Shown piece after piece: positions 5,422 through 25,830 of a DNA stretch of 64,000 nucleotides (positions are counted from its first letter, which is position 1; the number at the start of each line of letters is the position of its first letter). The position numbers and the translations under genes were made by a program. The notes under the pieces were generated by a model. It worked only from the letters and a program-made list of their open reading frames with translations, searched no databases and was not told where the DNA came from. The stretch comes from Candidatus Pacebacteria bacterium GW2011_GWA1_46_10. GTDB lineage: Bacteria; Patescibacteriota; Microgenomatia; UBA1400; PJMF01. The stretch covers positions 230,274 through 294,273 of the forward strand of contig LCLP01000001.1 of NCBI GenBank assembly GCA_001002135.1. The letters are read 5' to 3'.

Positions 5422-5428
5422 AAAATAA

Positions 5429-6286: not shown

Positions 6287-6906
6287 TATTTTCTCTGTTC
6301 AAGTAATTCTCTTAAAGTGGCGCTATCCGCATCACGCCGGCTGAGGATCATTTTCTCCCGCTCGATGGGCCACTGGATGTTCAGTTCTGGGTCAAACAGC
6401 GACAGTGCTTTGTCACCAGCCGGATCGCGCTCGTCGTAAAACGTGTCCACGGCGTAGTGATACAGTAGTGGGCCTTTGATCACCGCGATCGAGTTAGCGA
6501 CCCCCATCGGCACGTACAAGCTGACGTGAAATTCATCCGCCGGCTGTGGCTCGAACAAAAAGTATTCGACTTGTTTGAAGCTGGGGGAATCTGGACGAAT
6601 GTCCACCAGTGCTGACATCCCCTGACCAAACAGGACTGTCGTCAATTTATTCCACCCTTCGGCGTGCAGTCCTCGAACAACATTATTATTGGAATAGGCC
6701 AAATTGATTTGCTTGATCTCGATCCGTTTGCCGATCGCTTTTTCTAAAGCTTTCAAGTTTGTGATATTGGTGAAATAGCCGCGATCATCCAAGAATTTCT
6801 GGTGCTTGAAATACAGCAAGTCCTTGATCTTGGTACGAAAAACTCCAGGCGCCACTGCTTGATCAGCGGCGGGTTGATACATTGGTGGGAGATTCATAAT
6901 TTTCAA
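6286..6906 (-). CDS. dTDP-4-dehydrorhamnose 3,5-epimerase-like cupin (RmlC family)
   Basis: About 200 aa with an RGLH motif (VRGLHAEGW) and cupin-like hydrophobic pattern. Translationally coupled to the downstream oxidoreductase. Confidence 0.5.
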   Translation of the reverse strand: MKIMNLPPMYQPAADQAVAPGVFRTKIKDLLYFKHQKFLDDRGYFTNITNLKALEKAIGKRIEIKQINLAYSNNNVVRGLHAEGWNKLTTVLFGQGMSALVDIRPDSPSFKQVEYFLFEPQPADEFHVSLYVPMGVANSIAVIKGPLLYHYAVDTFYDERDPAGDKALSLFDPELNIQWPIEREKMILSRRDADSATLRELLEQRK

Positions 6907-6942
6907 TTATAGCGGAAGTGACATTATTGGCTAGTTCGCAAG

Positions 6943-6972
6943 TAAAAAGCAAAAGGCCCGCTTACGCGGGCC
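6943..6972 (-). terminator. Rho-independent terminator for the 6980..7336 gene
   Basis: GGCCCGC-TTAC-GCGGGCC hairpin. On the minus strand it is followed by a T-run (plus strand aaaagcaaaa precedes it). Confidence 0.6.
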
Positions 6973-6979
6973 TTGAGCC

Positions 6980-7336
6980 TTAACCTTCTTTTTCAAGAAT
7001 GTGATACCGCTTATACATCTCCTCCACTTGCCCGAGTATCAAATCTTTTGGCAAGTGTTCACCTGCCAGTGCCCTGAGGAGCCCAAGCATGTTAAACTCA
7101 GCGAGGTCATTCTCCTCAAGAGATGGCCTGCAAGGGATCAGCCATTCTGTCCAGCCTCGACTGTTGGCGATTTCTACAATAACTCTATCAATCGCCGGCA
7201 CGACAGTGATTAGAATGGAACGGGAAGTGCTAGAGATTTCTCGGAGGTATCCTTTATAGATACCTCTTTGCCTCTGTCGAGCCCTCTGATATTGAGGGTT
7301 CACGAGGATTTCTTGAACCTCCTTAGTCTTCCACAT
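6980..7336 (-). CDS. Hypothetical protein
   Basis: 118-aa ORF with a terminator directly downstream. No recognisable motif. Confidence 0.4.
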   Translation of the reverse strand: MWKTKEVQEILVNPQYQRARQRQRGIYKGYLREISSTSRSILITVVPAIDRVIVEIANSRGWTEWLIPCRPSLEENDLAEFNMLGLLRALAGEHLPKDLILGQVEEMYKRYHILEKEG

Positions 7337-7372
7337 GTTAAGGCTCTCCTTTCCCTGTTAGGGAAAAATCTA

Positions 7373-7419
7373 CTCGTTATATTCCAGTCAAGAGCGATTC
7401 TTGACCTTGATATAACGAG
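7373..7419. promoter_or_regulatory. Nested inverted repeat in a divergent intergenic region; candidate operator
   Basis: Outer arms ctcgttatat / atataacgag enclose an inner palindrome tcaaga-gcgat-tcttga. It lies between divergently oriented gene starts. Confidence 0.4.
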
Positions 7420-7495
7420 GCAAAAATTATATCAAAATGCATAAATAAGTCAATATTATAGGATATTTTCCTCTGGTCAAATTTCGCCTTGAGAT

Positions 7496-8728
7496 ATGTT
7501 ACAATTCACCCCTAAAGCTATGGTCAAACTTTATCAACCGTCACCAAAAACCCTCACCAAATACGCCGACGTCTTGGTCAACTTTGCCCTCAATTCCGGT
7601 CAAGGGGTGAAAAAGGGTGAGGTGGTGCGGATCGTGGTGCCGGACATCGCCAAACCCCTAGCACTTGAGCTGCAAAACACCGTGCTTCGTGCCAGCGCCC
7701 ACCCGGTACTGCGGCTTTTACCGACTGGTTTTGACCAGGATTACTACACCCTGGCCAACAAAAAACAGTTGGAGTTTTTTCCGCGCCAATACCACAAAGT
7801 TCAAGTAGACCTGATTGATCACACCATTGGCATTATTGCTGACCCGTACCCAGCAGAGCTGGCTCAGGTTGATCCACGTAAAATTCTCTTGGCTCGCGAC
7901 TCCAAAAAAGCCATCCGCGACTGGCTGGATAAGAAAGAAAATAAAGGCAAGTACACCTGGACGACCGCCCTGTGGGGTGTGGAGGCTAAAGCAGCAGAAG
8001 TTGGTTTGAGCTTGGAAGCCTATTGGCAGCAGATCATCAAGGCTTGTTTTTTGGATAAAGCCAAACCGGTCCATCAGTGGCGGCAAGTGCTAAAACTGCA
8101 AGAGAGCATCAAGGCCAAGTTAAATGCCTTGCAGATTGATTGGTTACTTATCAAAGGCAAGGATGTTGATCTGCGGATTAATCTTGGCAAGAAGCGCCAA
8201 TGGCGCGGCGGCGAAGGGCGCAACATCCCGAGCTTTGAGATCTTTACCTCACCCGATTGGCGGGGGACGGAAGGTTGGATTAAGTTTAATCAACCACTCT
8301 ATCGGTATGGTAACATTATTCGTGATATTTCCATGCGCTTTGAGCGCGGACACGTGGTGGAGGCTAAGGCCAAGGTTGGCAATCAATTTTTACAAGAAAT
8401 GGTTCGGCGCCACAACGCTGACAAGCTGGGCGAGGTGTCGCTGACCGATAAACGCACTTCTCGGATTTCCCATGTGATGGCCGAGACGCTGTTTGACGAG
8501 AACATCGGCGGCCCCTATGGCAACACTCATGTCGCGATCGGCAAAGCCTACCGCGATTGTTACTTGGAAGACCCCAGTAAGCTGAGCGACGCTGAGTGGC
8601 AGGAGCTTGGCTATAATGATTCAGCTGAACATACCGATATGGTCTCGACGACTGATCGGACGGTGACCGCAATCATGGTCGACAGGACCAAGAAAATCAT
8701 TTATCAAAACGGGATGTTTGTGGTCTAG
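7496..8728 (+). CDS. Aminopeptidase, M29 family (AmpS/PepS-like)
   Basis: 410 aa, the typical length. Segments such as LRINLGKKRQWRGGEGRNIPSFEIFTSPDW and NTHVAIG resemble thermophilic aminopeptidase T/PepS. Confidence 0.55.
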   Translation: MLQFTPKAMVKLYQPSPKTLTKYADVLVNFALNSGQGVKKGEVVRIVVPDIAKPLALELQNTVLRASAHPVLRLLPTGFDQDYYTLANKKQLEFFPRQYHKVQVDLIDHTIGIIADPYPAELAQVDPRKILLARDSKKAIRDWLDKKENKGKYTWTTALWGVEAKAAEVGLSLEAYWQQIIKACFLDKAKPVHQWRQVLKLQESIKAKLNALQIDWLLIKGKDVDLRINLGKKRQWRGGEGRNIPSFEIFTSPDWRGTEGWIKFNQPLYRYGNIIRDISMRFERGHVVEAKAKVGNQFLQEMVRRHNADKLGEVSLTDKRTSRISHVMAETLFDENIGGPYGNTHVAIGKAYRDCYLEDPSKLSDAEWQELGYNDSAEHTDMVSTTDRTVTAIMVDRTKKIIYQNGMFVV

Positions 8729-8746
8729 TGATGGCAGAGAGAATTC

Positions 8747-9523
8747 GTGATCATTTCCTCACCCCAACAACTCCGGCAATACCAGGCGGTGGCCAAAGTC
8801 TCGACCGAGATCTTGTGGCAGCTGCACCAGAAAACCCGTGCTGGGATAACTCCACTGGAGATTGACCGATTGGCCGACAAACTCTGTCGGCAGCACCAAG
8901 TCAAACCAAACTTCAAAGGAGTTGGTTCGCCGGACAATCCGTACCAGCATGCCACCTGTATTTCGGTCAACGACGTGGTGGTGCATGGTATTCCACAAGA
9001 TGTACCACTCAAAGAGGGAGACTTGGTCAAGGTTGATTTTGGGATCGAGCAAGATGGTTGGCAGACAGATCATTGTTTTACGGTGGGCGTTGGCACATTA
9101 ACTGATGAAGAACGGACACTGTTAAGGGTTGGTCGAGCTGCGGTGCTCAAAGCTGCCCGTGGCGCCAAGGTTGGCAAGACAGTGGGTGATCTTGGACACC
9201 TGATGGAGTCAACCGCGGGGAAATATGATTTCTCGGTCACGGAGCAGTATGTCGGGCATGGGATTGGTCACTTGCTACACGAAGAGCCACAAATTCCCGC
9301 TTGGGGGGAACCGAAGACTGGGATGAAATTGACTGAGGGGATGGTGTTGTGTGTGGAGGCGCAAGTGATTGCTGGTAACAGTGATGTCTATACGGCTGCT
9401 GATGGTTGGTCAGTGAAGACCCGTGATGGGAGTAAGGCGGTGATGTTTGAATACATGGTGGTGGTGGGGAAAAAACAGCCGATTTTCTTGACGCCGACCA
9501 CTGCTTGGCCACTGACTGTCTAA
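8747..9523 (+). CDS. map: Methionine aminopeptidase type I
   Basis: Canonical MetAP-I blocks: VCISVNDVVVHGIP, DLVKVDFG, GWQTDHCFTVGVG, HGIGHLLHEEPQIP, GMVLCVE. Confidence 0.9.
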   Translation: MIISSPQQLRQYQAVAKVSTEILWQLHQKTRAGITPLEIDRLADKLCRQHQVKPNFKGVGSPDNPYQHATCISVNDVVVHGIPQDVPLKEGDLVKVDFGIEQDGWQTDHCFTVGVGTLTDEERTLLRVGRAAVLKAARGAKVGKTVGDLGHLMESTAGKYDFSVTEQYVGHGIGHLLHEEPQIPAWGEPKTGMKLTEGMVLCVEAQVIAGNSDVYTAADGWSVKTRDGSKAVMFEYMVVVGKKQPIFLTPTTAWPLTV

Positions 9524-9550
9524 TATTCACCCTCTTTTCTTCTTGGGAAA

Positions 9551-10930
9551 GTGGTGTATAATTATACACCTCTCATGGTGAAGAAATCCCCACGTCAAAC
9601 TGCTTCCCGCAGGAGTGTAACCAGTAAAAAGCGACCGAAGAAATCGGTTCGTCAAACGTCATCTAAACGAAAAGCAGTCAAGAAAACTGTGAAAAAAGTT
9701 TCTCGGTCAACCAAGCAATCAGCCAAAAGACCAACTCAAAAAATGGTGAAAAAGACTGTCCGCAAACCTACCAAACCTACCAAACAAACCAAGCCAACCA
9801 AGGTTGAGCCGTTTATCATTCGTTCTCAGCAGGAGGAAAAACCCCTGCCAAAAATGACTGGCGAGCAGGTTGAGGCGCTTTTCAAAAAAGCCAAAAAGCA
9901 AGGCTTTGTGACTCAAGAGGAGATCTTGGATGTGTTTGTCGAGCCGGAGCTTTATTTGGAGCAGTTGGATGACTTTTATAGTCGAATTGTTGAGGCACAA
10001 ATTGACGTTTTTGAAGCTGTTTCAGAGGAGAAAGAAGAAGAGAGTGATGATGAGCTACAGCAGGAGTTAGATCTATTGGCCGGTCTGAAAAACACTGGTG
10101 TGGCTGACCCGGTCCGCATGTACCTCAAGGAGATTGGCCGGATTCCGCTTTTAACCCGTGAACAAGAAATTAGGTTGGCCCAAAGTGTGGAGGCCGGCGA
10201 CATGAAGGCGAAAAAGGGCTTGATCGATGCCAACCTCCGGTTGGTGGTGTCGATCGCCAAGAAATACATCGGTCGGGGTATGACCTTCCTGGATCTGATT
10301 CAAGAGGGCAACAAGGGTCTCATTCGCGCGGTCGAGAAATTCGACTGGACGAAGGGTTTTAAGTTCAGTACCTACGCCACTTGGTGGATCCGCCAAGCGA
10401 TTACCCGGAGTATTGCTGACCAAGCCCGCACCATTCGGATTCCGGTCCACATGGTCGAGACGATCAATAAACTAATGCGGACCAGCCGCCGGTTGATGCA
10501 AGACTTGGGTCGTGAGCCAACTCCTGAGGAAATTGGTAAACGGATGGAGAACATGGACCCGGATAAGGTTCGTGAAATTCTGAAAATTTCCCAAAATACC
10601 ACTTCACTGGAGACGCCGGTGGGCGATGGAGAAGATGACAGTATTCTCGGGGACTTTATTGCCGATGAAAAACAGGTTTCCCCGTATGAGGCTACCAGCA
10701 AACAGATGCTGCGGGAGAACATCGAAGAAGTCTTGGGTGCGCTTTCAGACCGTGAGGCCAGGGTACTGCGCATGCGGTTTGGGCTGCAGGGTAATAAAAC
10801 GATGACCTTGGAAGAGGTGGGTAAAAAATTCGGGGTCACCCGTGAGCGAATTCGTCAAATTGAGGCCAAGGCGCTGCGGAAGCTCAAACACCCTAGTCGA
10901 CGCAAAAAACTGCAGGATTTCCTCGAGTAA
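9551..10930 (+). CDS. rpoD: RNA polymerase primary sigma factor (sigma-70) with a Lys-rich N-terminal extension
   Basis: Regions 1.2, 2, 3 and 4 are recognisable: [87 protein letters not shown]. Start codon is ambiguous between GTG at 9551 and ATG at 9575. Confidence 0.9.
9553..9570. promoter_or_regulatory. Perfect 18-bp palindrome ggtgtataattatacacc overlapping a TATAAT hexamer at the rpoD 5' end
   Basis: The sequence equals its own reverse complement and contains tataat at 9558-9563. Confidence 0.45.
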
Positions 10931-10958
10931 TGGTCTGATAGTTCCCACCAAAATTTCA

Positions 10959-10990
10959 CTTGCCAATTTCATTTTCGGTTGTTACGCTTC
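10959..10990 (+). repeat. Conserved 5' leader element, copy 1 (cttgccaatttcattttcggttgttacg)
   Basis: About 30 bp nearly identical to 43748..43779. Looser similarity continues into the N-terminal coding region of the paralogous gene. Confidence 0.6.
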
Positions 10991-11019
10991 ATGTTAAGGC
11001 CGTCAGTGACACTATTAGT

Positions 11020-11421
11020 ATGATTACCAAACAAGATTCTCTCCAACTGCAAAAAGACTTTAAAAAAGTTTTTGTTACGAAAGCGGAAATGAATGCCCGA
11101 TTCGACAAGATGGACGTGCGATTTGACAAAATAGATACCCGTCTCGATAAGATGGACGCGCGGTTTGATAAAATTAACGCTCGGTTTGACAAGATGGATA
11201 AGGATAACGAGGAACAAACCCTGAGTTTAGCTCAGACGTTTAATCAAATAAATGACAGATTTATCGCCATTGAGAAGAGATTGGATATGATTGAAGAGAT
11301 TTTGCGAAGAATGGATGACCGGCAAAGCAAGATGGAGGAGTTTATGAAAGTCATGTCGCTTAAACTCCTCAATCATGATGGTCGGATTGTCACTCTGGAA
11401 TCAAAAATCCTCTTGAGTTAG
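11020..11421 (+). CDS. Small coiled-coil protein with five tandem heptad repeats (RFDKMDx); paralog of the 43809..44192 gene
   Basis: ATG at 11020 gives MITKQDSLQLQ, shared with the paralog. Repeat block RFDKMDVRFDKIDTRLDKMDARFDKINARFDKMDK. Confidence 0.55.
   Translation: MITKQDSLQLQKDFKKVFVTKAEMNARFDKMDVRFDKIDTRLDKMDARFDKINARFDKMDKDNEEQTLSLAQTFNQINDRFIAIEKRLDMIEEILRRMDDRQSKMEEFMKVMSLKLLNHDGRIVTLESKILLS
11098..11202 (+). repeat. Five tandem imperfect 21-bp repeats inside the coiled-coil gene
   Basis: The units read cgattcgacaagatggacgtg, cgatttgacaaaatagatacc, cgtctcgataagatggacgcg, cggtttgataaaattaacgct and cggtttgacaagatggataag. Confidence 0.8.
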
Positions 11422-11439
11422 GTATAATAGGGCATTCGA

Positions 11440-11514
11440 TCCCCTGTAGCTCAATGGCAGAGCAGGTCGCTGTTAACGACAAGGTTGGCGGTTCGAGTCC
11501 ACCCGGGGGAGCCA
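11440..11514 (+). tRNA. tRNA-Asn (anticodon GTT), CCA encoded
   Basis: Cloverleaf is recoverable: acceptor tcccctg/cggggga, D arm gctc-aatggca-gagc, anticodon loop cTGTTaa, T loop ttcgagt. There is one mismatch each in the anticodon and T stems. Confidence 0.75.
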
Positions 11515-12972
11515 AAGTTGATTATCGGTATGATTTAAGATTGTGTCGAATGGTTTTATCGCTTCATATCGCACTGTTTTACCCTCTACCCTAAGGTTCG
11601 ATAGTACGAGCTTGATTAACTGTCGTTTTTCCTCAACTTCCGAACTCTTGAACAAATCATAAGCTCGGTTTACTAGCTCCAGTAGGTATTTGCTCGAGAT
11701 GTAATAGTTATCCTCGGCTTCTTGAAGCATACCGAGTTGAGAGTCTAGCCCAGCTATTTGTTCACGGAATGATTGATAGAACTTGTCATACTCATCGTCA
11801 GTAATACGCCCCTTCAGTTTATCAAGGTAAAGATTGTCCATCATTTTAGTAACGCTTTTGTGTTCTGCTGTTAATTTATCGTATTGTTTGTTTTGAAAGT
11901 CCATTTTGTCTTGATGAACATTGTTTAGATTTACCACTACCTGCTCTAAAACCCAGTCGGGGATTTGTAATCGCTTAAATATACTTCCTATTTGCTCGGT
12001 TATATTTTCTTCCCGTAACCATTCAGCCCCGTGTTTGCCGTTATACTGCGTACAGTGGTAATAAACGTGTCCTTTGTGCTTTTCTGGGGTTACAGCGAGC
12101 CCACAATGACCGCATCGTAGTAAGCCCCGATAAGGGTAAGGCTTTCCAGCATATCTAGTTTTTTTCTTATTAAAACCTGCCTTGATTTGCTGTACCTGGT
12201 CATATAAAGTTTTTGCAATAATCGCTGGATACTTATGTTTATATTGCTTATTTTTCCAGGTCATTATTCCGTAATAGAAAGCGTTTTTGAGAATTTTATC
12301 TATCCAACCGTGGGACCACTCAACTGAATATTCGTTTTTTATTTTTGTGCGTAATAAATCCATCGAGAAACTACCAGTCGCATACCACTCATAAGCTTTT
12401 TGAACTACCCGTGATGCAAATTCATCTATAACTATTTCTGTTTTGTCCTTGTTTATTGGTTCTCTTTTGTAACCATAAGGTGGTCGGGCTGGATATGTGC
12501 CCATTCTAAGCATTTGTTCTTGAGCTCGTTTTACGTTATCGCTGATTGCGTCTGAGTAGTACTTGGCTAACCCAAGGCTGATACTGAAATTAAACTTTTC
12601 GACTGCGGATAGCTGGCTATTGATGACTTGTCCATCAGATACAAAATGTATTTCAATTTCATCTCTGAGAGCTTTTTCATAAAGGATGGAAACTCTTTTA
12701 TCAAATATGTTACGAGATAGGCGATCAACCTTATCAAATCCAATGGCTATTTTTTCTTTCTGTGAGAGGATGAAATCAAGAATACCATCAAAGTCATCCC
12801 TCTTATTCTTGTATGCACTTTCATCAAAACTGAACTCCTTTATAATTGGGTACCCTTTATTTTGAAAATATTTTCTTAGTCGCGCAGTTTGGGCTGGTAG
12901 AGAGTTACCAGCATCTTTTTGTTCTTCTGTGCTAACTCGTGAAGTTATAATTGCTTTCATGATTTTTGCCAA
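11473..12972 (-). CDS. Large serine recombinase (integrase)
   Basis: N-terminal resolvase catalytic domain (AIITSRVSTEEQ, GFDKVDRLSRN), a central recombinase domain, and a Cys-rich zinc ribbon (CGHCG...HC). The C-terminal codons run antisense into the tRNA-Asn. Confidence 0.8.
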   Translation of the reverse strand: MAKIMKAIITSRVSTEEQKDAGNSLPAQTARLRKYFQNKGYPIIKEFSFDESAYKNKRDDFDGILDFILSQKEKIAIGFDKVDRLSRNIFDKRVSILYEKALRDEIEIHFVSDGQVINSQLSAVEKFNFSISLGLAKYYSDAISDNVKRAQEQMLRMGTYPARPPYGYKREPINKDKTEIVIDEFASRVVQKAYEWYATGSFSMDLLRTKIKNEYSVEWSHGWIDKILKNAFYYGIMTWKNKQYKHKYPAIIAKTLYDQVQQIKAGFNKKKTRYAGKPYPYRGLLRCGHCGLAVTPEKHKGHVYYHCTQYNGKHGAEWLREENITEQIGSIFKRLQIPDWVLEQVVVNLNNVHQDKMDFQNKQYDKLTAEHKSVTKMMDNLYLDKLKGRITDDEYDKFYQSFREQIAGLDSQLGMLQEAEDNYYISSKYLLELVNRAYDLFKSSEVEEKRQLIKLVLSNLRVEGKTVRYEAIKPFDTILNHTDNQLWLPRVDSNRQPCR

Positions 12973-15900
12973 TGACTTTCAATATAGGATTGTGCCTCGC
13001 TCATGCTTAAAGAGCTAGTGTTATTGCCAGTTCTCACATATAGCTCTTCACTGCCTTGCGATTTTACATAGACTGGATTATCGGATTTTAGAACAGTAAT
13101 AAGACAAACATCTTTCCCTTCGATCATTTCGAAAATCGTACTGAAGTAACGCACTCGATCGGCGCCCATAGTTTCCTTTACAAGCTGAACTAAATGATTT
13201 TCAAACTCATCTCTATTTCCGTTACTCAAAGTCATATAATCTTGTTCTAGTCCAAAGATGCTCCCACCGTCCTCAACACCAATAATGAGTTGTCCACCTT
13301 CAGCATTCATGTATCCAGCAATCGTTTTAAGAATTACCTTTTCCAAGTCTTTGTTTGTTTTTCCTTGTCTAACATCCCATCTTAAAGTTGATTTAAATTC
13401 AAGTTTTTGGCTTTCACCTTTCTTGATGAGCTTGCCAATATCTTCATTTTCCAACTTTCGATAGATACGAGGCATAAGATACTGTTCAAGTTTGTCTCGG
13501 AGTTTTGGATCATTTATGAATTTCATGACCAACTCTTCATTGCGATCCATTCTTTCAACTAGAATATTGATAAGTTCTTCATTGAGCGGATATTTGAATG
13601 CGTCTTTTGGATTGACTTTGGCTTGATTCATTAAAGCCTCGTTGTTGTAAATGTCTTGCTCTATTTGGTCGATAAAAAGCTTATCTGCTTCTGTAAACTC
13701 AGTACCGAGTTTGTCATTGAGTATTTTGATAATTTCAGAAAGAATGGATTTGTCTTCGGTCTCGTAATCTATCGTGCCTGCGTCTTGCAGGGTAGCGAGC
13801 TCAACGGTACCTAGTTTCTCTGGGGTAATACTTCCTTCCTGAATTTTTTGCAGTTTGTAATATTGCAGAGCAATCTCGTCATTAAGATCAAACCGTTCGA
13901 CCGGGTCCTTGGGGAGAGCATTTCTCAGTAAACGTCCAAATACATACAGTTTTTCAAGATCTGAGTCGCTAAAAGGCATTACTTGTGAAAGAAATACATA
14001 CGCTCTAATAAAAGCGGTGAGTTGCTTCTTGAAATCTTCCTGTTTATCCTTTTCTTGCGTTTTGTATCGATCAATAGCTGGGGTGATAATGACATATAGT
14101 TTTTGTTGATCTGCTTTTGTTTGGTATCCAGAGAAGAAAACTTTTGCAAATGACTCTACTTCAGAGAGCCAGAAAACCTTGGAGTCGATCAGACTATTTT
14201 TAAGGTCGTATAAATGATTTGGATCGGTTGACTCATCGATTGAAGTATTCTCATAGTAAGGCTGAAACGCTTCAAGAATTTCACTTGGTTCATTTACAAA
14301 ATCCAAGATAAACGTATCTTCTTTGCCAGGGTGAGTGCGATTGAGTCGTGAAAGGGTTTGGACTGCTTTTACTCCAGATAACTTTTTATCTACAAACATA
14401 GTGTGGAGCAATGGTTCATCGTAACCAGTTTGGTATTTATCAGCTACAAGTAAGATACGATACTCATCAGTAGCAAACTTTTTTGGTAATTCCTTTTCAC
14501 CGAAACCATTTAGCTGAGGTTCAGTGACTTTTTCATCAGTGTCTGGGTCTTTAAGCGCCCCAGAAAAGGCAACCAGCACTCGAATATCGGTGTAGGCTTT
14601 TTCTTTCAAGTAGCGGTTAAATTCCTGATAGTAACGATAGGCGTGTAGGCGAGAGCTGGTCACAACCATTGCTTTTGCTTTACCACCAATTTTCTTCATT
14701 GTTATGTTGCGAAAATGCTCAGCAATAACCTCTGTTTTTTGAGCAAGATTGTGAGGATGCAGAGACAAGAATCTAGCTATGGCTTGATTGGCTTTTTTCT
14801 TATCAAGTTCTGGGTCGTCTTCGATTTTTTTAGTAATTCTGAAGTATGTTTTGTAAGTGGCGTAGCCTTTGAGCACATCAAGAATAAATCCTTCTTCAAT
14901 TGCTTGTCGCATGGAATACAGATGAAAGGGTACAGGCTTACCTTCTACATTTGAAACACCAAAGACTTCGAGCGTTTTGGCTTTGGGTGTGGCTGTGAAA
15001 GCGTAGAAGCTCAGGTTGTCTTGCTTGCCTCGTGCCGTCATGGATTGTCGAATATTATCTTCAACCGTTTCATCATCAGTAGTGTCTTCATTTTCTGCTT
15101 CCTCGAGAGTGTTAGCAGTCAACACTTGTTTCATCTGTTTGGCAGTTTCACCACCTTGTGAGCTGTGTGCTTCGTCAATAATTACCGCATACTTACTGGC
15201 TTGAAACTCACCGATTTGATCAAGCACAAAGGGAAATTTTTGTACCGTAGTGATTATGATCTTAACGCCTGCTCTTAGTGCATCTGCAAGCTGGTTAGAA
15301 TCTTTATCAATTCTCTTAACGACACCTTGCTTGTGATCAAATTGGTAGATAGTATCTTGTAACTGTTTATCCAAGACAATCCTATCGGTGACTACTATGA
15401 CTGACTTGAAAACTGGTTCGTTTTGATCGTCATGCAAACTTGAAAGGCGATACGCCAACCATGCAATGGAATTACTCTTGCCACTTCCTGCGCTATGCTG
15501 AATTAGGTAGTTCTTACCAACACCCTTTGCTTTGGTATCATGAGTAAGCTTGCGGACTACATCGAGTTGATGATAACGAGGGAAGATGATTGTTTCTTTT
15601 GTTTTGATTTTTCCACTAACTCGAATTTCTTGTTGCTCAAAGTGAATGAATTTTTGCAAAATATCCATCCAACTATCTTTGCTCCAAACTTCCTTCCATA
15701 AATAATCAGTTTTGTAACCTTGCTCATTAGGTGGATTGCCTGCTCCGTTTTGGTAGCCCTTATTAAAGGGTAAAAAGGATGTGTCCTCACCTTTTAAGTG
15801 AGTAGTCATGGAAACCTCATTTGGATCAACGGCAAAGTGGACTAAAGCTCTCTTCTTAAATTGAAACAACATTTCGTTGGTATCTCGTGTGTAGATGAAT

Positions 15901-16409
15901 TGTCTTTCAGCATTACTTTTATCTTGTCCTGTAAAAGGATTTTTCAGCTCTACTGTAGCTACAGGAAGTCCATTCAGAAAGAGCACTAAGTCAACTGCTA
16001 AATCTGGATTCTTGACACTAAAATGAACTTGGCGAGTTACGCTCAGGATGTTTTTTTGGTACAACTCAAGTGTTTCAGGGTTGAGATACGACTCAGGCTT
16101 GAAGTAAGCAAGATCTAGGTGAATACCATGATCATCAATACCTTCACGAAGCACTTTGAGCATACCCTTTTTCTCTAGCTCACGCACTAATCTAGAAATG
16201 ATTTTGTCTTCAAGCTGATCCTGATGAATATCAGAGAGCATTTGCCATTTTTCTGGCTGGGTATCGCATAGGAATGAGAGTAGGGTGGTTGTATCAAGAG
16301 CAAGTTGTGGGTCGAAATTATTAGCATTGCCTTGAACATATTCAGATTGGTTGATTAAGCTATCGACGATATTTGATTCGAATGTTTCTTCGTTATAAAT
16401 GTTGCTCAT
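12957..16409 (-). CDS. hsdR: Type I restriction enzyme R subunit fused to a C-terminal AlbA_2/Schlafen-like domain
   Basis: Helicase motif I QHSAGSGKS and DEAH box IIDEAHSS. The C-terminal 200 aa have AlbA_2 hallmarks: LEFKSTL, AGYMNAEGGQLIIGVEDGG and PVYVKSQGSEELYVRTGNNTSSLS. Confidence 0.8.
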   Translation of the reverse strand: MSNIYNEETFESNIVDSLINQSEYVQGNANNFDPQLALDTTTLLSFLCDTQPEKWQMLSDIHQDQLEDKIISRLVRELEKKGMLKVLREGIDDHGIHLDLAYFKPESYLNPETLELYQKNILSVTRQVHFSVKNPDLAVDLVLFLNGLPVATVELKNPFTGQDKSNAERQFIYTRDTNEMLFQFKKRALVHFAVDPNEVSMTTHLKGEDTSFLPFNKGYQNGAGNPPNEQGYKTDYLWKEVWSKDSWMDILQKFIHFEQQEIRVSGKIKTKETIIFPRYHQLDVVRKLTHDTKAKGVGKNYLIQHSAGSGKSNSIAWLAYRLSSLHDDQNEPVFKSVIVVTDRIVLDKQLQDTIYQFDHKQGVVKRIDKDSNQLADALRAGVKIIITTVQKFPFVLDQIGEFQASKYAVIIDEAHSSQGGETAKQMKQVLTANTLEEAENEDTTDDETVEDNIRQSMTARGKQDNLSFYAFTATPKAKTLEVFGVSNVEGKPVPFHLYSMRQAIEEGFILDVLKGYATYKTYFRITKKIEDDPELDKKKANQAIARFLSLHPHNLAQKTEVIAEHFRNITMKKIGGKAKAMVVTSSRLHAYRYYQEFNRYLKEKAYTDIRVLVAFSGALKDPDTDEKVTEPQLNGFGEKELPKKFATDEYRILLVADKYQTGYDEPLLHTMFVDKKLSGVKAVQTLSRLNRTHPGKEDTFILDFVNEPSEILEAFQPYYENTSIDESTDPNHLYDLKNSLIDSKVFWLSEVESFAKVFFSGYQTKADQQKLYVIITPAIDRYKTQEKDKQEDFKKQLTAFIRAYVFLSQVMPFSDSDLEKLYVFGRLLRNALPKDPVERFDLNDEIALQYYKLQKIQEGSITPEKLGTVELATLQDAGTIDYETEDKSILSEIIKILNDKLGTEFTEADKLFIDQIEQDIYNNEALMNQAKVNPKDAFKYPLNEELINILVERMDRNEELVMKFINDPKLRDKLEQYLMPRIYRKLENEDIGKLIKKGESQKLEFKSTLRWDVRQGKTNKDLEKVILKTIAGYMNAEGGQLIIGVEDGGSIFGLEQDYMTLSNGNRDEFENHLVQLVKETMGADRVRYFSTIFEMIEGKDVCLITVLKSDNPVYVKSQGSEELYVRTGNNTSSLSMSEAQSYIESHWQKS

Positions 16410-17761
16410 AGTATTTGATCCTTAATAAATTCTTCTGGGATTGGTTCATCACGAACATCGATTTTTCCAGTAACAGCACTTGAGATGAGTGTTTGGCGGT
16501 ATTCTCGAAGCAGGAGGTTTTGGGATATTAATGTATTTTTCTTGTTTTCAATTTTTTCTACATATCCATCTAGATATTGAGCTATTTTTACTAGCTCTTC
16601 TTCTGAAGGACTTAACAATGGTAGCCATTTTAATTCAGAGAAATTCAAGGTTTGCCTTACACCATTTCCAAGTCCATAAAGCACTTTACCTATATCATAA
16701 GAATGAAGTAGATAGTAATAGTATTGGGAATTAGATAGCTGATTTTTTGGGACAAGCCCAATATATGCTGAGGTTATAATTCCATGTTCTTTTGAAAGTC
16801 CAACTCTCAAACTTTTTTTATCATTTTGAAGGTCAGTTAGTCTTAAAATAATGTATCCCGAAGCTACTACTTGATAGCCCTGAAATGAACTTGGCAGTAA
16901 TCCAAAGTTATTTTCAACATTTCTTTTAATAATTCTTCCATAACTTAATGACAATACATTCTTTTCATTTTGGTTAATATTTTTGGTTTTGTTGTTTGAA
17001 AAGATTGCAAAAAGTGGTTTTATTTCCCAATGCTCAGGAACTTTCCCAATCCACTCAATGCCACTGTCTTTCATTTTGACCGTAGGATCGAGACCTTTAG
17101 TGACTACCTGATTGATGGTGGCTTGTTTTTTTTCTTCAAGGAGCTGGATGAGTTGTTTGTTTTTAGAGATGAGGTTGTCTATGAGGAAGATCTTATAGTT
17201 TAGGTATGAAGCAATTTTCTTCTGCATACTTGTATCGACTGAAATTGGAATGTATAAATTAGAAATAGTGTCTGAATTTAAATTTGCCAGCCCTGTGGTC
17301 GTATTTGAGAATATTTGATACTGCACTCTTGATATTTGTGAATTTAAATACCAATAACCAAATTGGCTGTTCATTTTAGTGTTTGGTCTTATTCTTTGCA
17401 TAAAGTTTGAGTAGCACGTTATTTCAGAGGTAATTCTCTTATCAACTACAGCGGTTTTTCCAATATGTAATTCGCTTCCGCTTGATTTAGTAATAATTAA
17501 ATCACCTATTTCTACTTTACTTTTTCTTATTTCAGCATCTGAGAGATCACGATAAGCAGAATCCTTCAAATTATTCCATTTACCATCGACGGATATTTCT
17601 GTAGACCTTAGTACTCTAGTTCCATTTTCCATGGGATCATTTCCCCATACTCCACCATCATTAGAAGTAATGAGCCACTTGAGTTTGCTTAGATACCAAT
17701 CTTGAGGGATTTCTCCAATCCAAGTTATGCCAGTTTGTTTGTATTTTGAATATGGCTTCAT
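16406..17761 (-). CDS. hsdS: Type I restriction-modification specificity subunit
   Basis: Two-TRD architecture with a central conserved spacer. 4-nt overlaps with both hsdM and hsdR. Confidence 0.75.
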   Translation of the reverse strand: MKPYSKYKQTGITWIGEIPQDWYLSKLKWLITSNDGGVWGNDPMENGTRVLRSTEISVDGKWNNLKDSAYRDLSDAEIRKSKVEIGDLIITKSSGSELHIGKTAVVDKRITSEITCYSNFMQRIRPNTKMNSQFGYWYLNSQISRVQYQIFSNTTTGLANLNSDTISNLYIPISVDTSMQKKIASYLNYKIFLIDNLISKNKQLIQLLEEKKQATINQVVTKGLDPTVKMKDSGIEWIGKVPEHWEIKPLFAIFSNNKTKNINQNEKNVLSLSYGRIIKRNVENNFGLLPSSFQGYQVVASGYIILRLTDLQNDKKSLRVGLSKEHGIITSAYIGLVPKNQLSNSQYYYYLLHSYDIGKVLYGLGNGVRQTLNFSELKWLPLLSPSEEELVKIAQYLDGYVEKIENKKNTLISQNLLLREYRQTLISSAVTGKIDVRDEPIPEEFIKDQIL

Positions 17762-19479
17762 GAGAGTATTTCTTTTAATAACCCATCACTTTCTTTTTCA
17801 AGTTCAAGAATGTCTTTCGTTATTTCCTCGAGTGAACGGAGGGGCTTATATTCATAAAAGTGTTTGGTGAAGTTTATTTCATACCCAACTTTGGTTTGGC
17901 TCTCATCAATCCAGGCATCTGGAACGTGGGGTTTTACCTCACGTTCAAAATACTCATGAATATCCTCTTTGAGTGGCACATTTTCTCTATCTCTCAGGCT
18001 AGTATCAGGCTTGGGGTTACCGCCCTTATCAGTGATTATTTTTCCATTTTTATCTATTTGAGGTCTTTCGATAGCAATCTGATTGTATCCAAAATCTTCA
18101 TTATCAAAAATCTTTGAGAATTTTCCTGACTTGATCTCACCATGCATTTCAACAATCTTGGCTATGTCTTCATCGGCAATTTCATGACGTTTGTTTCCCA
18201 AGCTCTTGCTCATCTTTTTGTAGAAATTAACTGCGTTAATTAGTTGAATTTTGCCTTTTCTTTCATTTGATTTACGATTGGTTAAGATCCAAATGTAGGT
18301 AGAGATTCCAGTGTTGTAAAAAAGTTGATCGGGAAGAGCAATGATCGCTTCTAAAAGGTCGTTTTCAATGATCCATTTACGAATGTCAGATGGACCACTT
18401 CCAGCACTTCCAGTAAACAGAGGTGAGCCGTTGAAGACGATTGATAATCTGCTCCCGCCATTAGACGGCTTCATCTTCGCAAGCATGGTTTGAAGGAATA
18501 AAAGAGAGCCATCGCTGATGCTTGGTAAGCCTGCTCCAAAACGTCCGCCATAACCAAGATCTTCATGTTCGGAAACAACTTCTTTTTGAGCTTTATTCCA
18601 CTTCACTCCAAAGGGAGGGTTGGAGAGCATATAGTCGAACTGTACATTAGATAGTTTATCATCACGCAGGGTATCTCCAAAACGGATATGCTCTGCATTG
18701 TGACCAGTAACCATCATGTCTGATTTACAAATAGCATAAGACTCGGGATTAATTTCTTGCCCGAATAATTCAAGCCGTGCATCTGGGTTTAACTCTTGGA
18801 GGTAATCTTCTGCAACGGTTAACATACCACCAGTTCCACAAGCTGGGTCGTAGATTGTTTTGACAATACTTTTCTTAGATAGAATTTCATTATCGTTTGT
18901 GAAAAGTAGGTTAACCATTAAACGAATGACTTCTCTTGGGGTAAAGTGTTCTCCTGCCGTCTCATTTGAGGATTCGGCGAACTTCCGAATTAACTCTTCA
19001 AAGATGTATCCCATTTCCAAATTAGTAACTTTTTTTGGGTTAAGATCAATTTCTTGGAATTTTTTAACTACTTGATAGAGCAAATCTGCCTTATCGAGCT
19101 TGATAATTTGTTTATCAAACTCAAAGTTTTCTATGATATCTCTAGCATCCTTTGAAAAACCATTTAGATAGTTGCGAAGATTTGGGGCGATATTGCTTGG
19201 GTCAGCAATTAGTTTATTGAAATCAAATTGACTATGATTGTGAAACTTTCTGCCTGCAATCTTGTTCAATAGAATATCTGGATCATCAATCTGTTTGTCC
19301 TTGATAGACCCGTACTGTTTTAGAACTATTTCTTTTGTATCCTCCAAGTCACAGTCAAGTCTACGAAGCACAGTAAGTGGCAAAATAACTTTGCCATAAT
19401 CTGATTGCTTATAATCACCACGGAGCAGATCAGCCACGCTCCAGATAAAGTTTGCGTATTGTGAGATATTAAGTTTCAT
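17758..19479 (-). CDS. hsdM: Type I restriction-modification N6-adenine DNA methyltransferase subunit
   Basis: HsdM N-terminal domain (NFIWSVADLLRGDYKQSDYGKVILPLTVLRRL) and catalytic motif LSNPPFG. Confidence 0.85.
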   Translation of the reverse strand: MKLNISQYANFIWSVADLLRGDYKQSDYGKVILPLTVLRRLDCDLEDTKEIVLKQYGSIKDKQIDDPDILLNKIAGRKFHNHSQFDFNKLIADPSNIAPNLRNYLNGFSKDARDIIENFEFDKQIIKLDKADLLYQVVKKFQEIDLNPKKVTNLEMGYIFEELIRKFAESSNETAGEHFTPREVIRLMVNLLFTNDNEILSKKSIVKTIYDPACGTGGMLTVAEDYLQELNPDARLELFGQEINPESYAICKSDMMVTGHNAEHIRFGDTLRDDKLSNVQFDYMLSNPPFGVKWNKAQKEVVSEHEDLGYGGRFGAGLPSISDGSLLFLQTMLAKMKPSNGGSRLSIVFNGSPLFTGSAGSGPSDIRKWIIENDLLEAIIALPDQLFYNTGISTYIWILTNRKSNERKGKIQLINAVNFYKKMSKSLGNKRHEIADEDIAKIVEMHGEIKSGKFSKIFDNEDFGYNQIAIERPQIDKNGKIITDKGGNPKPDTSLRDRENVPLKEDIHEYFEREVKPHVPDAWIDESQTKVGYEINFTKHFYEYKPLRSLEEITKDILELEKESDGLLKEILS

Positions 19480-19670
19480 TAATTTTTCCTTTCAGATAGA
19501 AAAGACTCTAAGTCGTGCTTGGATATTCGATGTTGTTTACCCGCCTTAACAGCGTGTAATTTTTTTGCCTGCACCCATCTATAAACAGTTAGATAGGCTA
19601 CTTTTAGCATTTTGGAGATTTCTTTAATGGAGTAATATTGCTCTTCTATCATATTAGTTATATTTATCAT
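19479..19670 (-). CDS. Excisionase-family / MerR-like HTH DNA-binding protein
   Basis: 63 aa with HTH segment IKEISKMLKVAYLTVYRWVQAKKLHAVKAGKQHRISKHDLESFL. It overlaps the hsdM start. Confidence 0.6.
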   Translation of the reverse strand: MINITNMIEEQYYSIKEISKMLKVAYLTVYRWVQAKKLHAVKAGKQHRISKHDLESFLSERKN

Positions 19671-20817
19671 TATTTAACATTGTATCTTGAAAATCAACTA
19701 GTTTTAGTGGTTCAAAATTGGTCAAATGCTCACGAATTACTTCAAGTGGGCTTTTGGAAGGGGGCAATTTGACGGTTTTTGCCTCTGCAATGAGTCTATA
19801 CCAACTCCTTTGACTGTATCCACTAAACATAGTTCTAAGCTCACGAGGCGTTATATCGTTGAAAATTTGTTTTAGTCCATAGAGCTGTACGGTTTTTTTT
19901 AGTCCAAGGCGAGAATTATTAATAATAAGGTCTGCCAATAAGGATTTTGGACTTGTTGGTTTGTAATCAAATAGCGGTAGTCGTTTACTTTCAACTTCAT
20001 CGAGATAATGTAGTAAGACTTGTTGAGAAATGCTTGGGCTAAAAAGGTTCTTATAAGTAAGCTCTGATTGAATGCCAAGCGTGCGGAATAACTGCTTTAT
20101 TTTCTGCCGTTTATTGAGCCGTACTTCCATTCGTAAGACCTCTAGCTGTTTTCTTTTCTCAAATGTATCAAAAAGGCTAAGTTGTAAGGCATTATCTCTT
20201 TCTACCGCTCGTTTCTCACTTTTCTTTGCCATTTCGAGGTCTTTTATCTTATCGTAAAAAGCTACTTCATATGAGTTGGCATGCCATTTGTAGCTGTGTC
20301 CATCATTGCGGTAGTCTGTTTGGTTTATATCGAGTGAAAGTTTTATATTTGCTTCATTAATCTTGCTAATAAGGTAATGAGGTGTAGACCCATCTGTTAG
20401 AGGTATATTTTTAGAATAATGAATAGCTGACACTGGTGCATTAAGTAAAAATTTTTCCCAAACCATCACGCCCATATCTTTAAGACGGGATTTTAATAGT
20501 TTGGTAACAGGATCAAAGTCGTCAATCGACAACTCGTCAAAATTATTGCCAAAAAGCAGTTTAGGCAGAGATAATTCTATTTTAAGTGTTGCTTCGCGCC
20601 TGCCTGTGTGGTTAAAACGGTTCGTTAAGGTAAGTCGTGGCTTATAGATACCACTTTGTAATTCTCGCTTAGTGGGGTTTTGTTTTGCAGGAATATATCC
20701 ACGACTACCCATAGATGAGTTTTCATCAAGTATTAGCCTAGCAGATGGTTCAAACCTATCTGGTTCTTTAATGTAATACATACCTTTACTTAGTGTTAAA
20801 ACTACTGTGTCTAGCAT
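19654..20817 (-). CDS. Hypothetical island protein (possible replication or mobilisation function, unproven)
   Basis: 387-aa ORF overlapping its neighbours within the same operon. No clear motif. Confidence 0.35.
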   Translation of the reverse strand: MLDTVVLTLSKGMYYIKEPDRFEPSARLILDENSSMGSRGYIPAKQNPTKRELQSGIYKPRLTLTNRFNHTGRREATLKIELSLPKLLFGNNFDELSIDDFDPVTKLLKSRLKDMGVMVWEKFLLNAPVSAIHYSKNIPLTDGSTPHYLISKINEANIKLSLDINQTDYRNDGHSYKWHANSYEVAFYDKIKDLEMAKKSEKRAVERDNALQLSLFDTFEKRKQLEVLRMEVRLNKRQKIKQLFRTLGIQSELTYKNLFSPSISQQVLLHYLDEVESKRLPLFDYKPTSPKSLLADLIINNSRLGLKKTVQLYGLKQIFNDITPRELRTMFSGYSQRSWYRLIAEAKTVKLPPSKSPLEVIREHLTNFEPLKLVDFQDTMLNNDKYN

Positions 20818-21082
20818 ACATTTTGGTTACATTTTCAAACTTTGAAATGATTACTTTTTCTATTTTTTCCGCAATATTTCGGTTAATGGGATGAAAGATA
20901 TTAAAATTACCGCTCGGACCCTTGCGAGTGGGGTAGGTCAATCGATACCCACCTTGCGGTCTGGTATAGATACCAATGGACCCAAAATAAAAGCTGTCGT
21001 TATAAACGAAGCTCGCAAAACCCACCAAGCCATCTCTTGCTTTGATTGGTGTTATTTGAACTTCGCTTAATATGTCTTTCAT
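20786..21082 (-). CDS. SpoVG-like nucleic-acid-binding protein
   Basis: Resembles SpoVG: N-terminal VQITPIKARDGLVGFASFVYNDSFYF, YPTRKGPSGNF and the HPIN motif. Confidence 0.5.
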   Translation of the reverse strand: MKDILSEVQITPIKARDGLVGFASFVYNDSFYFGSIGIYTRPQGGYRLTYPTRKGPSGNFNIFHPINRNIAEKIEKVIISKFENVTKMYARHSSFNTK

Positions 21083-21417
21083 ATTTTCCCCTTAGGTTGG
21101 TTTTCAATAGATAATCCATCGATGCATCGTTCCAACTCTTTATCACTCCAATTTTCAAGTGATTCCCAACCCATCATCAATAAATCCTCTAAAACCTCTG
21201 TATTTTGAGCGTGACAAATATCACAGACCTTGTCATTAATGATGATTTGGTATGCTCTATCACGGCTTACTTGTTTACCAAATGCTTGGATTTTTACACC
21301 CATCTTTTCTTTACGTGCTCGAATGCCTTCTTTTACCCTCTTACTAAATAGTCTGTGATAATCAGTTGTCAACAAATCCAGAAGTTGAGTCTGAAAACTC
21401 TTGTTTATTTTTTTCAT
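21079..21417 (-). CDS. Hypothetical protein; first gene of the minus-strand island operon
   Basis: 112-aa ORF with a palindrome and a conserved 5' motif upstream. Confidence 0.4.
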   Translation of the reverse strand: MKKINKSFQTQLLDLLTTDYHRLFSKRVKEGIRARKEKMGVKIQAFGKQVSRDRAYQIIINDKVCDICHAQNTEVLEDLLMMGWESLENWSDKELERCIDGLSIENQPKGKI

Positions 21418-21429
21418 TTGTTACTTTCT

Positions 21430-21444
21430 TTGACCGTTGGTCAA
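21430..21444. promoter_or_regulatory. 15-bp palindrome ttgaccgttggtcaa in the 5' UTR of the 21417 gene
   Basis: Perfect inverted repeat about 14 nt upstream of the start codon (minus orientation). Confidence 0.4.
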
Positions 21445-21617
21445 TACTTATTAGAATTGAGAAAAAATCAGTCAACCTTGCCATATCATCAACATCAAAG
21501 CCTTCCGTACTCCTTTCAGGGCTTTGCAACTTTTTGAGCTGGGAATTGGTAAAGCTCGACCGCATTAAGTCGAGGATATAAAAAGGAAGGTTGTCCCAAG
21601 TGGGTCAACTAGTTGTC

Positions 21618-23192: not shown

Positions 23193-23260
23193 AGTTCGTT
23201 ACATTTTCAAAACTTATGTTTGTTTATCATATTTTATCAGTTTAACGATAGAATAGTGTT

Positions 23261-24712: not shown

Positions 24713-24843
24713 CTTTAGGTAATCGCAAGATTAAAGGTGTCGAATACTGTTTGGATATTTTGTAAACTAAATCCAAACTCTATCTCTCGGTTCTTAAATG
24801 CGTCAACCAGGGGGAGCTTAATATATTTTGATATAATTGATAA

Positions 24844-25467: not shown

Positions 25468-25473
25468 ATTTTT

Positions 25474-25830
25474 TTAAATCTTTTTTCCGGCAATTTTTTG
25501 TCGGAGGATTTCAAATTCGGGTATTTCTGCGTCCAGATTCTGAGCGACCACAAGTAAGTTATCAATGGCGTTCTGAGCGTCTTCCCAGAGTCCGGCAGCT
25601 GCATAAGTTTGGGCAAGATGGTAGTTGAACCAGAGATCACGTTCTGGGCCGGCCCAGGCAGAGTCAGCTTCTTGTTGGAGTTGATGGATAAACTCATCTA
25701 GAGCTTGGCGAAGCTCGTTTTCAGGTTTTTGTTCACGCACTGTTTGGATGAATATCTCCCTGCTTGGTTTGGCCGTTGCCGTCTCGGCAATAACTGAGTC
25801 ATATGTGGCTGGCTTTGTCTCTTTGTCCAT
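25474..25830 (-). CDS. Hypothetical small helical protein
   Basis: 118-aa ORF convergent with the HD gene. Confidence 0.35.
   Translation of the reverse strand: MDKETKPATYDSVIAETATAKPSREIFIQTVREQKPENELRQALDEFIHQLQQEADSAWAGPERDLWFNYHLAQTYAAAGLWEDAQNAIDNLLVVAQNLDAEIPEFEILRQKIAGKKI

Follow-up and report, generated by a model that had tools for sequence, protein, structure and literature searches.

A Type I restriction enzyme encoded by a Candidatus Pacebacteria bacterium carries a Schlafen domain with an intact active-site signature, fused in frame to the C-terminus of its motor subunit, HsdR. The gene (hsdR::Slfn) lies in a 64,000-nucleotide stretch of contig LCLP01000001.1, referred to here as the window, and was analyzed with profile searches, structure prediction and surveys of homologues. 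The fusion and its Schlafen fold are almost certainly genuine. The domain is probably a catalytic effector of some kind, and we lean, somewhat less firmly, toward a second effector, an RNase or tRNA-cleaving nuclease (tRNase), coupled to the restriction complex. One protein may then attack both foreign DNA and the host translation machinery.

Cutting of foreign DNA is generally regarded as the sole means of defense of Type I restriction enzymes. The sole classical Type I link to tRNA cleavage is PrrC with EcoprrI, which works through a separate, unrelated protein. An intact-site Schlafen nuclease joined covalently to that enzyme's motor points to a direct link between restriction and translational arrest. 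Schlafen tRNases fused to sensors and linked to restriction-modification (R-M) were already known; what appears to be new here is HsdR as the partner.

A Schlafen domain at the end of HsdR

The gene and the parts of its product are, in window coordinates:

12957 to 16409, reverse strand: hsdR::Slfn open reading frame, 1150 amino acids plus stop codon
15786 to 16397, reverse strand: HsdR N-terminal PD-(D/E)xK endonuclease domain, residues 5-208 (Pfam HSDR_N, E=1.3e-11)
14235 to 15581, reverse strand: superfamily 2 (SF2) translocase motor, residues ~277-725 (Pfam SWI2_SNF2, ResIII, DEAD and T1R_D3-like)
13455 to 14234, reverse strand: HsdR C-terminal helical region, residues ~726-985 (bounded by the end point of non-fused homologues)
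12960 to 13442, reverse strand: single-lobe Schlafen/AlbA_2 domain of the prokaryotic Schlafen (pSlfn) type, residues ~990-1150 (PF04326, AlphaFold2, Foldseek and profile alignment)
13392 to 13415, reverse strand: predicted catalytic Ex4ExK, E999-S-Q-K-L-E1004-F-K1006 (invariant alignment columns)
13269 to 13271, reverse strand: D1047 in GVED, predicted third acidic active-site residue (near-invariant column)

An earlier note on this DNA, made from the letters alone, had proposed that the last 200 residues of HsdR are an AlbA_2 domain. A search with the Pfam hidden Markov model SLFN_AlbA_2 (PF04326) agreed on its identity: residues 999-1133 match at 57.9 bits (E=1.9e-15), where the curated cut-off is 25.3, and the match spans profile positions 1-116 of 118. 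The peptides quoted for the domain are all present (GESQKLEFK from residue 998, IAGYMNAEGG from 1030, GVEDGG from 1044 and VRTGNNT from 1125). The C-terminal location stood as proposed, but the length did not, since the module is really about 160 residues long (~990-1150) with its junction at ~985.

AlphaFold2 was used to predict the isolated Schlafen domain and a second Schlafen-like protein of the window, described further below. The model of the last 175 HsdR residues has a predicted local distance difference test score (pLDDT) of 90.9 and a predicted template modeling score (pTM) of 0.87, and its fold bears out the proposed domain. Foldseek matched it against the PDB with probability 1.0 to 3LMM (a bacterial AlbA_2-ATPase protein), to the SAMD9 tRNase/DNA-binding domain (7KSP, 9O0D), and to the nuclease domains of SLFN13, SLFN5, SLFN11, SLFN14 and SLFN12, with query-normalized TM-scores of 0.36-0.61 to these structures. 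In BFVD, the matches are Schlafen-like proteins of poxviruses and giant viruses. A profile of the domain subfamily also matches SLFN11, SLFN14 and SLFN13 (E=5e-10 to 1e-7), as well as CbCash, a bacterial CRISPR-associated Schlafen. The strong alignment falls on the catalytic C-lobe of SLFN11/13/14, while the N-lobe matches are weak and secondary. The mammalian-type core, with N-lobe and C-lobe in one chain, is not found here; the protein has a single lobe of ~160 residues.

The rest of the protein is an HsdR. PADLOC assigned it to the Type I restriction endonucleases (REase_I, E=3.2e-40); PADLOC (2023) has no model recognizing its Schlafen part. On the motor, Pfam placed SWI2_SNF2/ResIII/DEAD at residues 277-479 (SWI2_SNF2 84.8 bits) and T1R_D3-like at 640-704. 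The NCBIfam model TIGR00348 (hsdR) aligned to residues 64-721 at E=1.2e-55 and scored 189.3 bits, below its cut-off of 284.55, and the sole solved relative by sequence, EcoR124I HsdR, is distant (E~1e-11). On both grounds, the window protein is by its sequence a divergent HsdR lineage. The nuclease residues D140, E154, K156 and Q170xxxY174 can be read in it, as can the DEAH box of the motor at residue 412, and the nuclease motif DLVLFLNGLPVATVELK is kept across fused homologues. D140/E154/K156 and the DEAH motif are also retained in the fused HsdRs; the Schlafen domain has joined them and not taken their place.

An intact active-site signature under selection

The profile alignment places three blocks of SLFN11/13/14 on the window protein. 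Their ES..IEFK is in register with E999-SQKL-E1004-F-K1006, their SAFAN..GG aligns with A1031-GYM-N1035-AE-GG (the Schlafen box, ending in G1038-G1039), and their GVDD aligns with G1044-V-E-D1047, where D248 of SLFN13 sits. E205, E210 and D248 are the catalytic residues of SLFN13 and are essential for its activity (PMC5862951).

Conservation was scored among the 148 closest representatives of the subfamily, in two alignments (86 and 63 representatives). In these, the Ex4ExK, the Asn of the Schlafen box and the first Gly pair do not vary, and the Asp of GVxD is near-invariant (at least 90%). Among the fused HsdRs found in the homologue survey below, all 21 clusters have the Ex4ExK, the Schlafen-box Asn and glycines, and the GVxD Asp.

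The ratio dN/dS was not computable, with synonymous sites saturated (proportion of synonymous differences, pS, ~0.8), and the proportion of nonsynonymous differences (pN) was compared with pS instead. Against four homologues, from the loci L001, L003, L004 and L006, pN of the Schlafen part is 0.13-0.23; the same comparisons give 0.05-0.26 for the HsdR N-terminal nuclease and 0.06-0.32 for the C-terminal helical region. The Schlafen domain is under purifying selection comparable to the rest of HsdR. With pN comparable to that of HsdR's own regions while pS is saturated, the domain has been kept by selection.

Distribution, gain and loss of the fusion

A search of 5.8 billion proteins returned 21 clusters that carry the fusion, at 60-100% identity, 1139-1153 residues long and with the same Pfam set including PF04326, against many relatives of ~995 residues that end at ~985. 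The fusion is thus as unusual as the earlier note had supposed. Among the matches listed, the other relatives are 57-70% identical, ~980-1035 residues long and without PF04326. Homologues of 992-1014 residues terminate in ...KKVYNRLQ or ...IYKKLEKESHAK, a point that matches residue ~985 of the window protein (aligned at ~980-990), and only a few linker residues separate this end of HsdR from the Schlafen domain. The added region lies beyond the normal C-terminus of HsdR, at which the non-fused homologues stop. Ordinary HsdRs of ~995 residues, such as P0017, P0022 and P0026, share with the window protein 58-70% identity over residues 1-985, the same Pfam domains and the hsdM-hsdS-hsdR operon, and are without the final ~160 residues.

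In a library clustered at 50% identity, the entire fused clade is one representative, P0007. A neighbor-joining tree of the HsdR body (residues 1-985), built without bootstrap support and indicative only, groups the fused proteins together, with the unfused P0017 (999 residues) and P0022 (996 residues) nested within the fused clade. This suggests a single gain of the Schlafen module followed by at least two losses. P0017 (locus L005, 10001-13000) ends in ...LEKEDGLRAINK and P0022 in ...LEKESHAK, both exactly at the junction, and to judge from these ends the two look like clean, independent losses of the module. P0017 is located in a plain hsdMSR operon. Since the module was apparently lost at least twice in the clade while HsdR was kept, it is accessory.

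Fused proteins have been deposited under other names. GenBank entries of 2015 from genomes of the Candidate Phyla Radiation (CPR), namely of Candidatus Pacebacteria and Microgenomates, bear the annotation "DEAD/DEAH box helicase" and are near-identical to the window HsdR, which is >90% identical to an entry from Candidatus Pacebacteria. The fused homologue P0008, from a deltaproteobacterial metagenome-assembled genome, is annotated by NCBI as "putative DNA binding domain-containing protein". A tblastn search of the domain against 72,556 plasmids matched 16 records, none of them beneath an HsdR gene. A scan of GTDB species genomes with patterns from the junction region, which were over-specific, found two loci, both stand-alone Schlafen-domain genes of CPR bacteria.

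Possible function of the Schlafen domain

Three lines of evidence argue for an effector over a sensor. The catalytic residues are conserved, they align to the catalytic lobe of SLFN11/13/14, and in the bacterial proteins characterized so far, the Schlafen domain is the tRNase effector and its partner is the sensor. Prokaryotic Schlafens have been described as antiviral effectors that cleave tRNA and are joined to a range of sensors, with 55 domain compositions among them; Ex4(E/D)xK is required for pSlfn defense, and a DUF262-Slfn fusion gives broad defense (PMC13056530). A Schlafen activated by cA4 cuts tRNA, and the same work lists clusters of Schlafens that go together with R-M systems, among them direct fusions to methyltransferases (PMC13462974). 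The single lobes of SLFN-pAgo proteins dimerize, rebuild a bilobal nuclease and cleave tRNA when the Argonaute recognizes its target, and a Schlafen-ATPase module fused to HsdS has also been reported (bioRxiv 10.64898/2026.05.29.728809). All three sources are dated 2026. Full-text searches of the literature on Schlafen/AlbA_2 and Type I restriction turned up no account of an HsdR fusion, although supplementary architecture tables may list it.

By this analogy sensing would fall to HsdR, or to the whole R-M complex, while the Schlafen domain would be a metal-dependent RNase, most probably with tRNA as its substrate, whose activity depends on what state the restriction complex is in. Single-lobe bacterial Schlafen domains have to pair into a bilobal active nuclease. 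In the resting R2M2S complex, the Schlafen domains could be held apart, or occluded near the interface between HsdR and the methylase. Activation might come when the complex engages unmethylated DNA and its motors translocate, stall or collide; since R2M2S has two HsdRs and single lobes must pair, pairing by motor collision or stalling is possible. Alternatively, the domains might be released when the complex is disabled, as PrrC is with EcoprrI. The outcome would be DNA restriction together with translation shutdown, a built-in abortive-infection back-up. This specific gating model is tentative, much more so than the idea of an effector as such.

Several points weigh against the tRNase effector. 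We infer the substrate (tRNA, other RNA or DNA), the activation mechanism and the phenotype alike, and an intact active-site signature neither guarantees activity nor fixes the substrate. There are mammalian SLFNs that retain these residues but differ in behavior. The structure prediction took in the isolated domain, so that its place in R2M2S and any dimerization are conjectural. The apparent loss of the domain on two occasions implies that the system can do without it. The host belongs to the CPR bacteria, whose phage biology is poorly known. Finally, the homologous domain of SAMD9 was crystallized as a DNA-binding domain (7KSP).

That SAMD9 structure, with the same fold bound to DNA, also fits the proposal of the earlier note that the domain is a second sensing or regulatory module, which would be non-catalytic, bind DNA or RNA (single-stranded DNA, structured RNA or a DNA mimic) and tune how HsdR loads, translocates or cleaves. 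The NCBI annotation of P0008 as DNA-binding and the description of SLFN5 entries as DNA/RNA-binding proteins agree with it. So does the position of the domain, directly after the C-terminal region of HsdR, which in EcoR124I has a role in complex assembly and DNA binding. However, strict conservation of the Ex4ExK, Asn and Asp predicts a catalytic site and not a pure binding surface, and all bacterial Schlafen domains characterized so far are nucleases that require the motif. With the lobe alignment and the effector precedents added, a regulatory module seems unlikely. If the domain is catalytic, it might instead cut DNA (single-stranded DNA or translocation flaps) as a second DNA nuclease that reinforces or broadens DNA breakdown by the Type I enzyme, and leave host RNA unaffected. 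Acidic triads of this kind serve metal-dependent phosphodiesterases generally, the tether to a DNA translocase makes DNA the nearest substrate, and close relatives of the domain are fused to other DNA restriction enzymes, GmrSD and an Eco57I-type methylase. Yet RorSlfn5 was reported to be active on tRNA and not on DNA (PMC13056530), the Schlafen domains of CbCash and RzAgo also cut tRNA, and an extra DNA nuclease is less obviously useful to an HsdR that keeps its own PD-(D/E)xK nuclease. We consider this reading more doubtful still.

Single-lobe Schlafen domains do pair or oligomerize in RzAgo, CbCash and RorSlfn5, and other Schlafen-domain genes occur in the same loci as the fusion, as would suit a purely structural module for oligomerization or assembly that dimerizes HsdRs or docks a partner such as the Slfn proteins of the island. 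Docking would not need conserved catalytic residues, however, and the extra Slfn genes are absent from the window operon and from L003 and L004, so a purely structural role appears quite improbable. An artefact, in which neighboring genes were joined by a sequencing or assembly error or PF04326 matched by chance, has nothing in its favor beyond the general possibility of such errors in metagenome-assembled genomes. The same uninterrupted architecture of 1139-1153 residues recurs in 21 clusters from independent assemblies and sources, the domain is under in-frame purifying selection, its Pfam score is more than twice the cut-off and the fold was confirmed; the chance of an artefact is negligible, and the candidate was rejected.

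Relation to known systems

The closest parallels to a Schlafen effector on HsdR are the pSlfn proteins RorSlfn5 (Slfn with an Ig-like sensor) and EcoSlfn7 (DUF262/GmrSD_N with Slfn). Like them, the window protein has a single lobe, an Ex4(E/D)xK and a variable partner, and sits in a defense island; GmrSD_N::Slfn proteins are among the closest relatives of its Schlafen domain. Here, unlike in either, the partner is a complete HsdR (residues 1-985) with its own nuclease and motor, acting in a three-subunit complex. The Schlafen domain of RorSlfn5 is N-terminal, whereas that of HsdR is C-terminal, with its function read from sequence. The Type I R subunit would be one more sensor to which an ancient Schlafen effector has been coupled in bacteria.

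The fusion also resembles Schlatpase (Schlafen with a GHKL ATPase), SLFN-pAgo (both bioRxiv 10.64898/2026.05.29.728809) and the R-M-associated Schlafen clusters 3, 4 and 7 (PMC13462974). This group includes Schlafen domains fused to or embedded in R-M, single lobes that pair into the active tRNase, and tRNA cleavage licensed by the partner's recognition of its target. Unlike Schlatpase, the 1150-residue protein has no GHKL/HATPase domain at E<=0.01 and ends with its Schlafen domain, and its partner is HsdR, not HsdS or a methyltransferase.

Mammalian SLFN11, SLFN13 and SLFN14 share with the window protein a homologous nuclease fold and the catalytic E-E-D residues. Their Schlafen core is bilobal and N-terminal, and their C-terminal part is an SF1-type helicase, whereas HsdR has one lobe, C-terminal to an SF2 translocase with a PD-(D/E)xK DNA nuclease. 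SLFN11 combines a nucleic-acid-dependent helicase-type domain and a Schlafen tRNase in one chain, and its DNA sensing activates tRNA cleavage (PMC13056530). The fusion extends this parallel between a nucleic-acid-dependent motor and a Schlafen tRNase to bacteria's Type I enzymes.

A functional comparison can be made with PrrC. This anticodon nuclease is a latent tRNase embedded in the EcoprrI Type Ic hsd locus and coupled to it physically and genetically, and the pair is a precedent for restriction backed by translational suicide once restriction has been countered (cited in PMC5862951 and PMC3710099). However, PrrC is a protein of its own and of unrelated fold, with an ABC-type ATPase and a HEPN nuclease; the window protein has no such Pfam matches, and its candidate nuclease is a Schlafen fold covalently attached to HsdR. 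Speculatively, HsdR::Slfn could be a cis-fused functional analogue of PrrC-EcoprrI, with silent lobes that assemble on motor collision or stalling or upon anti-restriction. The triggers would then include phage anti-restriction proteins such as the DNA mimic Ocr/ArdA or an Stp-like peptide, and translation would be shut down in response to a restriction event that is under way or has failed, which would unite restriction with abortive infection in a single polypeptide. What is observed in the window is the physical coupling to a Type I system, as against activation by anti-restriction, which is a hypothesis; we think the analogy as a whole unlikely.

Other Schlafen-domain proteins

A second Schlafen-like protein is encoded in the window:

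23261 to 24712, forward strand: 483-residue protein with a divergent N-terminal Schlafen-fold domain, ~20-205 (hhalign, Foldseek and relatives)

The earlier note had placed a second AlbA_2 protein 7 kb from HsdR. The protein is real and lies in the same low-GC island, but it is divergent and by itself falls under the Pfam cut-off, with a partial PF04326 match at 21.5 bits against 25.3. Its relatives include seven homologues with PF04326 matches, six of them at 31-36% identity. The family profile aligned to the Schlafen profile with an hhalign probability of 74% (E=2.9e-5, 161 columns), and the AlphaFold2 model (pLDDT 78) matched SAMD9 and SLFN structures with Foldseek probability 1.0. Ex4Ex(R/K) and SIANSGGG are invariant in the family, and the GVxD Asp is not conserved. 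The C-terminal domain of ~280 residues gave only weak TBP-like fold matches (probability ~0.1). The protein is 100% identical to GenBank KKU18417.1 (Candidatus Pacebacteria), and its gene lies just past the segment shared with L001, still within the low-GC stretch. It is adjoined by a gene for an HD-domain (HD_5/HD) protein at 24844-25467 on the forward strand, with weak PADLOC matches to Cas3 HD.

The wider subfamily of the HsdR-borne domain was collected with an exhaustive HMMER search; a word-indexed search with the domain gave no more than 12 proteins, all short, and none of the fused HsdRs. With HMMER, 451 representatives fell at E<1e-30 and 4121 at E<1e-10. Nearly all of the best 150 have the Schlafen domain at the C-terminus of a protein of 180-800 residues, behind a variable N-terminal part. 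The N-terminal partners include bPH_2 (22 of 86), SBP_bac_3 (8), GmrSD_N/DUF262 (3, of which two have GmrSD_C as well), receiver (3) and TIR (2), as well as AbiTii, Lon/BrxL, an Eco57I-type methylase, TPR, WD40 and AAA_22. As judged from these architectures, the pattern is that of a portable effector on many sensors, several of them restriction enzymes themselves.

Additional Schlafen genes occur in relatives of the operon itself. In L001, whose HsdR is 89% identical to that of the window, and in L006 (65%), an extra gene of ~550 codons lies between hsdM and hsdS, at 6976-8634 and 3867-5510 respectively, both on the forward strand. Its product starts with a part like N6_Mtase/Methylase_S and ends in a Schlafen domain of its own, which has Ex4ExK. 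The L001 and L006 copies share 43% identity, and their Schlafen domain is 31% identical to that of HsdR. These extra genes, encoding fusions of Schlafen to parts like a methyltransferase or target recognition domain (MTase/TRD-like::Slfn), indicate that this R-M family recruited Schlafen modules repeatedly. Their position recalls that of prrC within the EcoprrI locus. If the coupling suggested for HsdR held also for GmrSD::Slfn, Eco57I-type::Slfn and MTase/TRD-like::Slfn, a restriction enzyme with a tRNase add-on would be a general design.

Operon and island

The neighbors of hsdR::Slfn are:

16406 to 17761, reverse strand: hsdS specificity subunit, 451 amino acids (Pfam Methylase_S; PADLOC Specificity_I, E=1.3e-87)
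17758 to 19479, reverse strand: hsdM methyltransferase subunit, 573 amino acids (Pfam HsdM_N and N6_Mtase; PADLOC MTase_I, E=3e-273)
19479 to 19670, reverse strand: 63-residue HTH_17 protein directly upstream of hsdM (Pfam HTH_17, E=4.9e-14)
11473 to 12972, reverse strand: large serine recombinase, an integrase (Pfam Resolvase, Recombinase and Zn_ribbon_recom; PHROG 95, E=7e-70)
11440 to 11514, forward strand: tRNA-Asn(GTT) at the island edge (ARAGORN)

The hsdM-hsdS-hsdR operon is complete, on one strand and with 4-nucleotide overlaps between its genes. The recombinase gene overlaps the stop codon of hsdR, and its 3' end overlaps tRNA-Asn(GTT), which is the probable integration target. In L001, L003 and L004, an orthologous recombinase overlaps a tRNA-Asn or tRNA-His gene (L001 14890-14964; L003 14906-14982; L004 15099-15175), and the gene order HTH-hsdM-(variable insert)-hsdS-hsdR::Slfn-recombinase is conserved; the gene upstream of hsdM is of the HTH_17 type in L001 and L004 and of the HTH_3 type in L003. 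L006 has the fused HsdR without a recombinase. From the conserved gene order and the overlap of recombinase and tRNA in relatives, these Type I systems therefore appear to be cargo of tRNA-gene-targeting serine-recombinase islands. The fusion would thus be mobile defense cargo, carried also in reduced CPR genomes.

The island forms a low-GC stretch from 12000 to 28000, at GC 0.35-0.40 against 0.45-0.50 in the flanks. Two marks served to place its right-hand end, the GC content (~28000) and the point at which similarity to the L001 island stops (~23212). A search for flanking direct repeats at the island ends gave only chance-level short repeats, as expected for a serine recombinase. The backbone, at 19654-23192 on the reverse strand, encodes proteins of 387, 98 (SpoVG-like, 20786-21082), 112 and 524 residues, which had no Pfam, NCBIfam, PHROG or PADLOC matches except the weak one to SpoVG; their orthologues stand in the same order in L001, at 66-73% DNA identity.

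L004 has two tandem recombinase-terminated units, at 1-3559 and 5997-15120. Unit 1 is a ResIII gene and a resolvase, and unit 2 is HTH_17-hsdM-DUF3800-hsdS-hsdR::Slfn-resolvase beside tRNA-His. It seems that such islands can stack at a single site and that the slot between hsdM and hsdS takes varied inserts, DUF3800 in the case of L004.

A second low-GC patch of the window (44675-49161, forward strand, GC 0.40-0.43) encodes a 586-residue N6_N4_Mtase protein (Mod) followed by a 909-residue ResIII protein (Res), and from these domains the pair looks like a Type III R-M system. In all, 64 kb of a very small CPR (Pacebacteria) genome encode no fewer than two R-M systems and two proteins of Schlafen fold.

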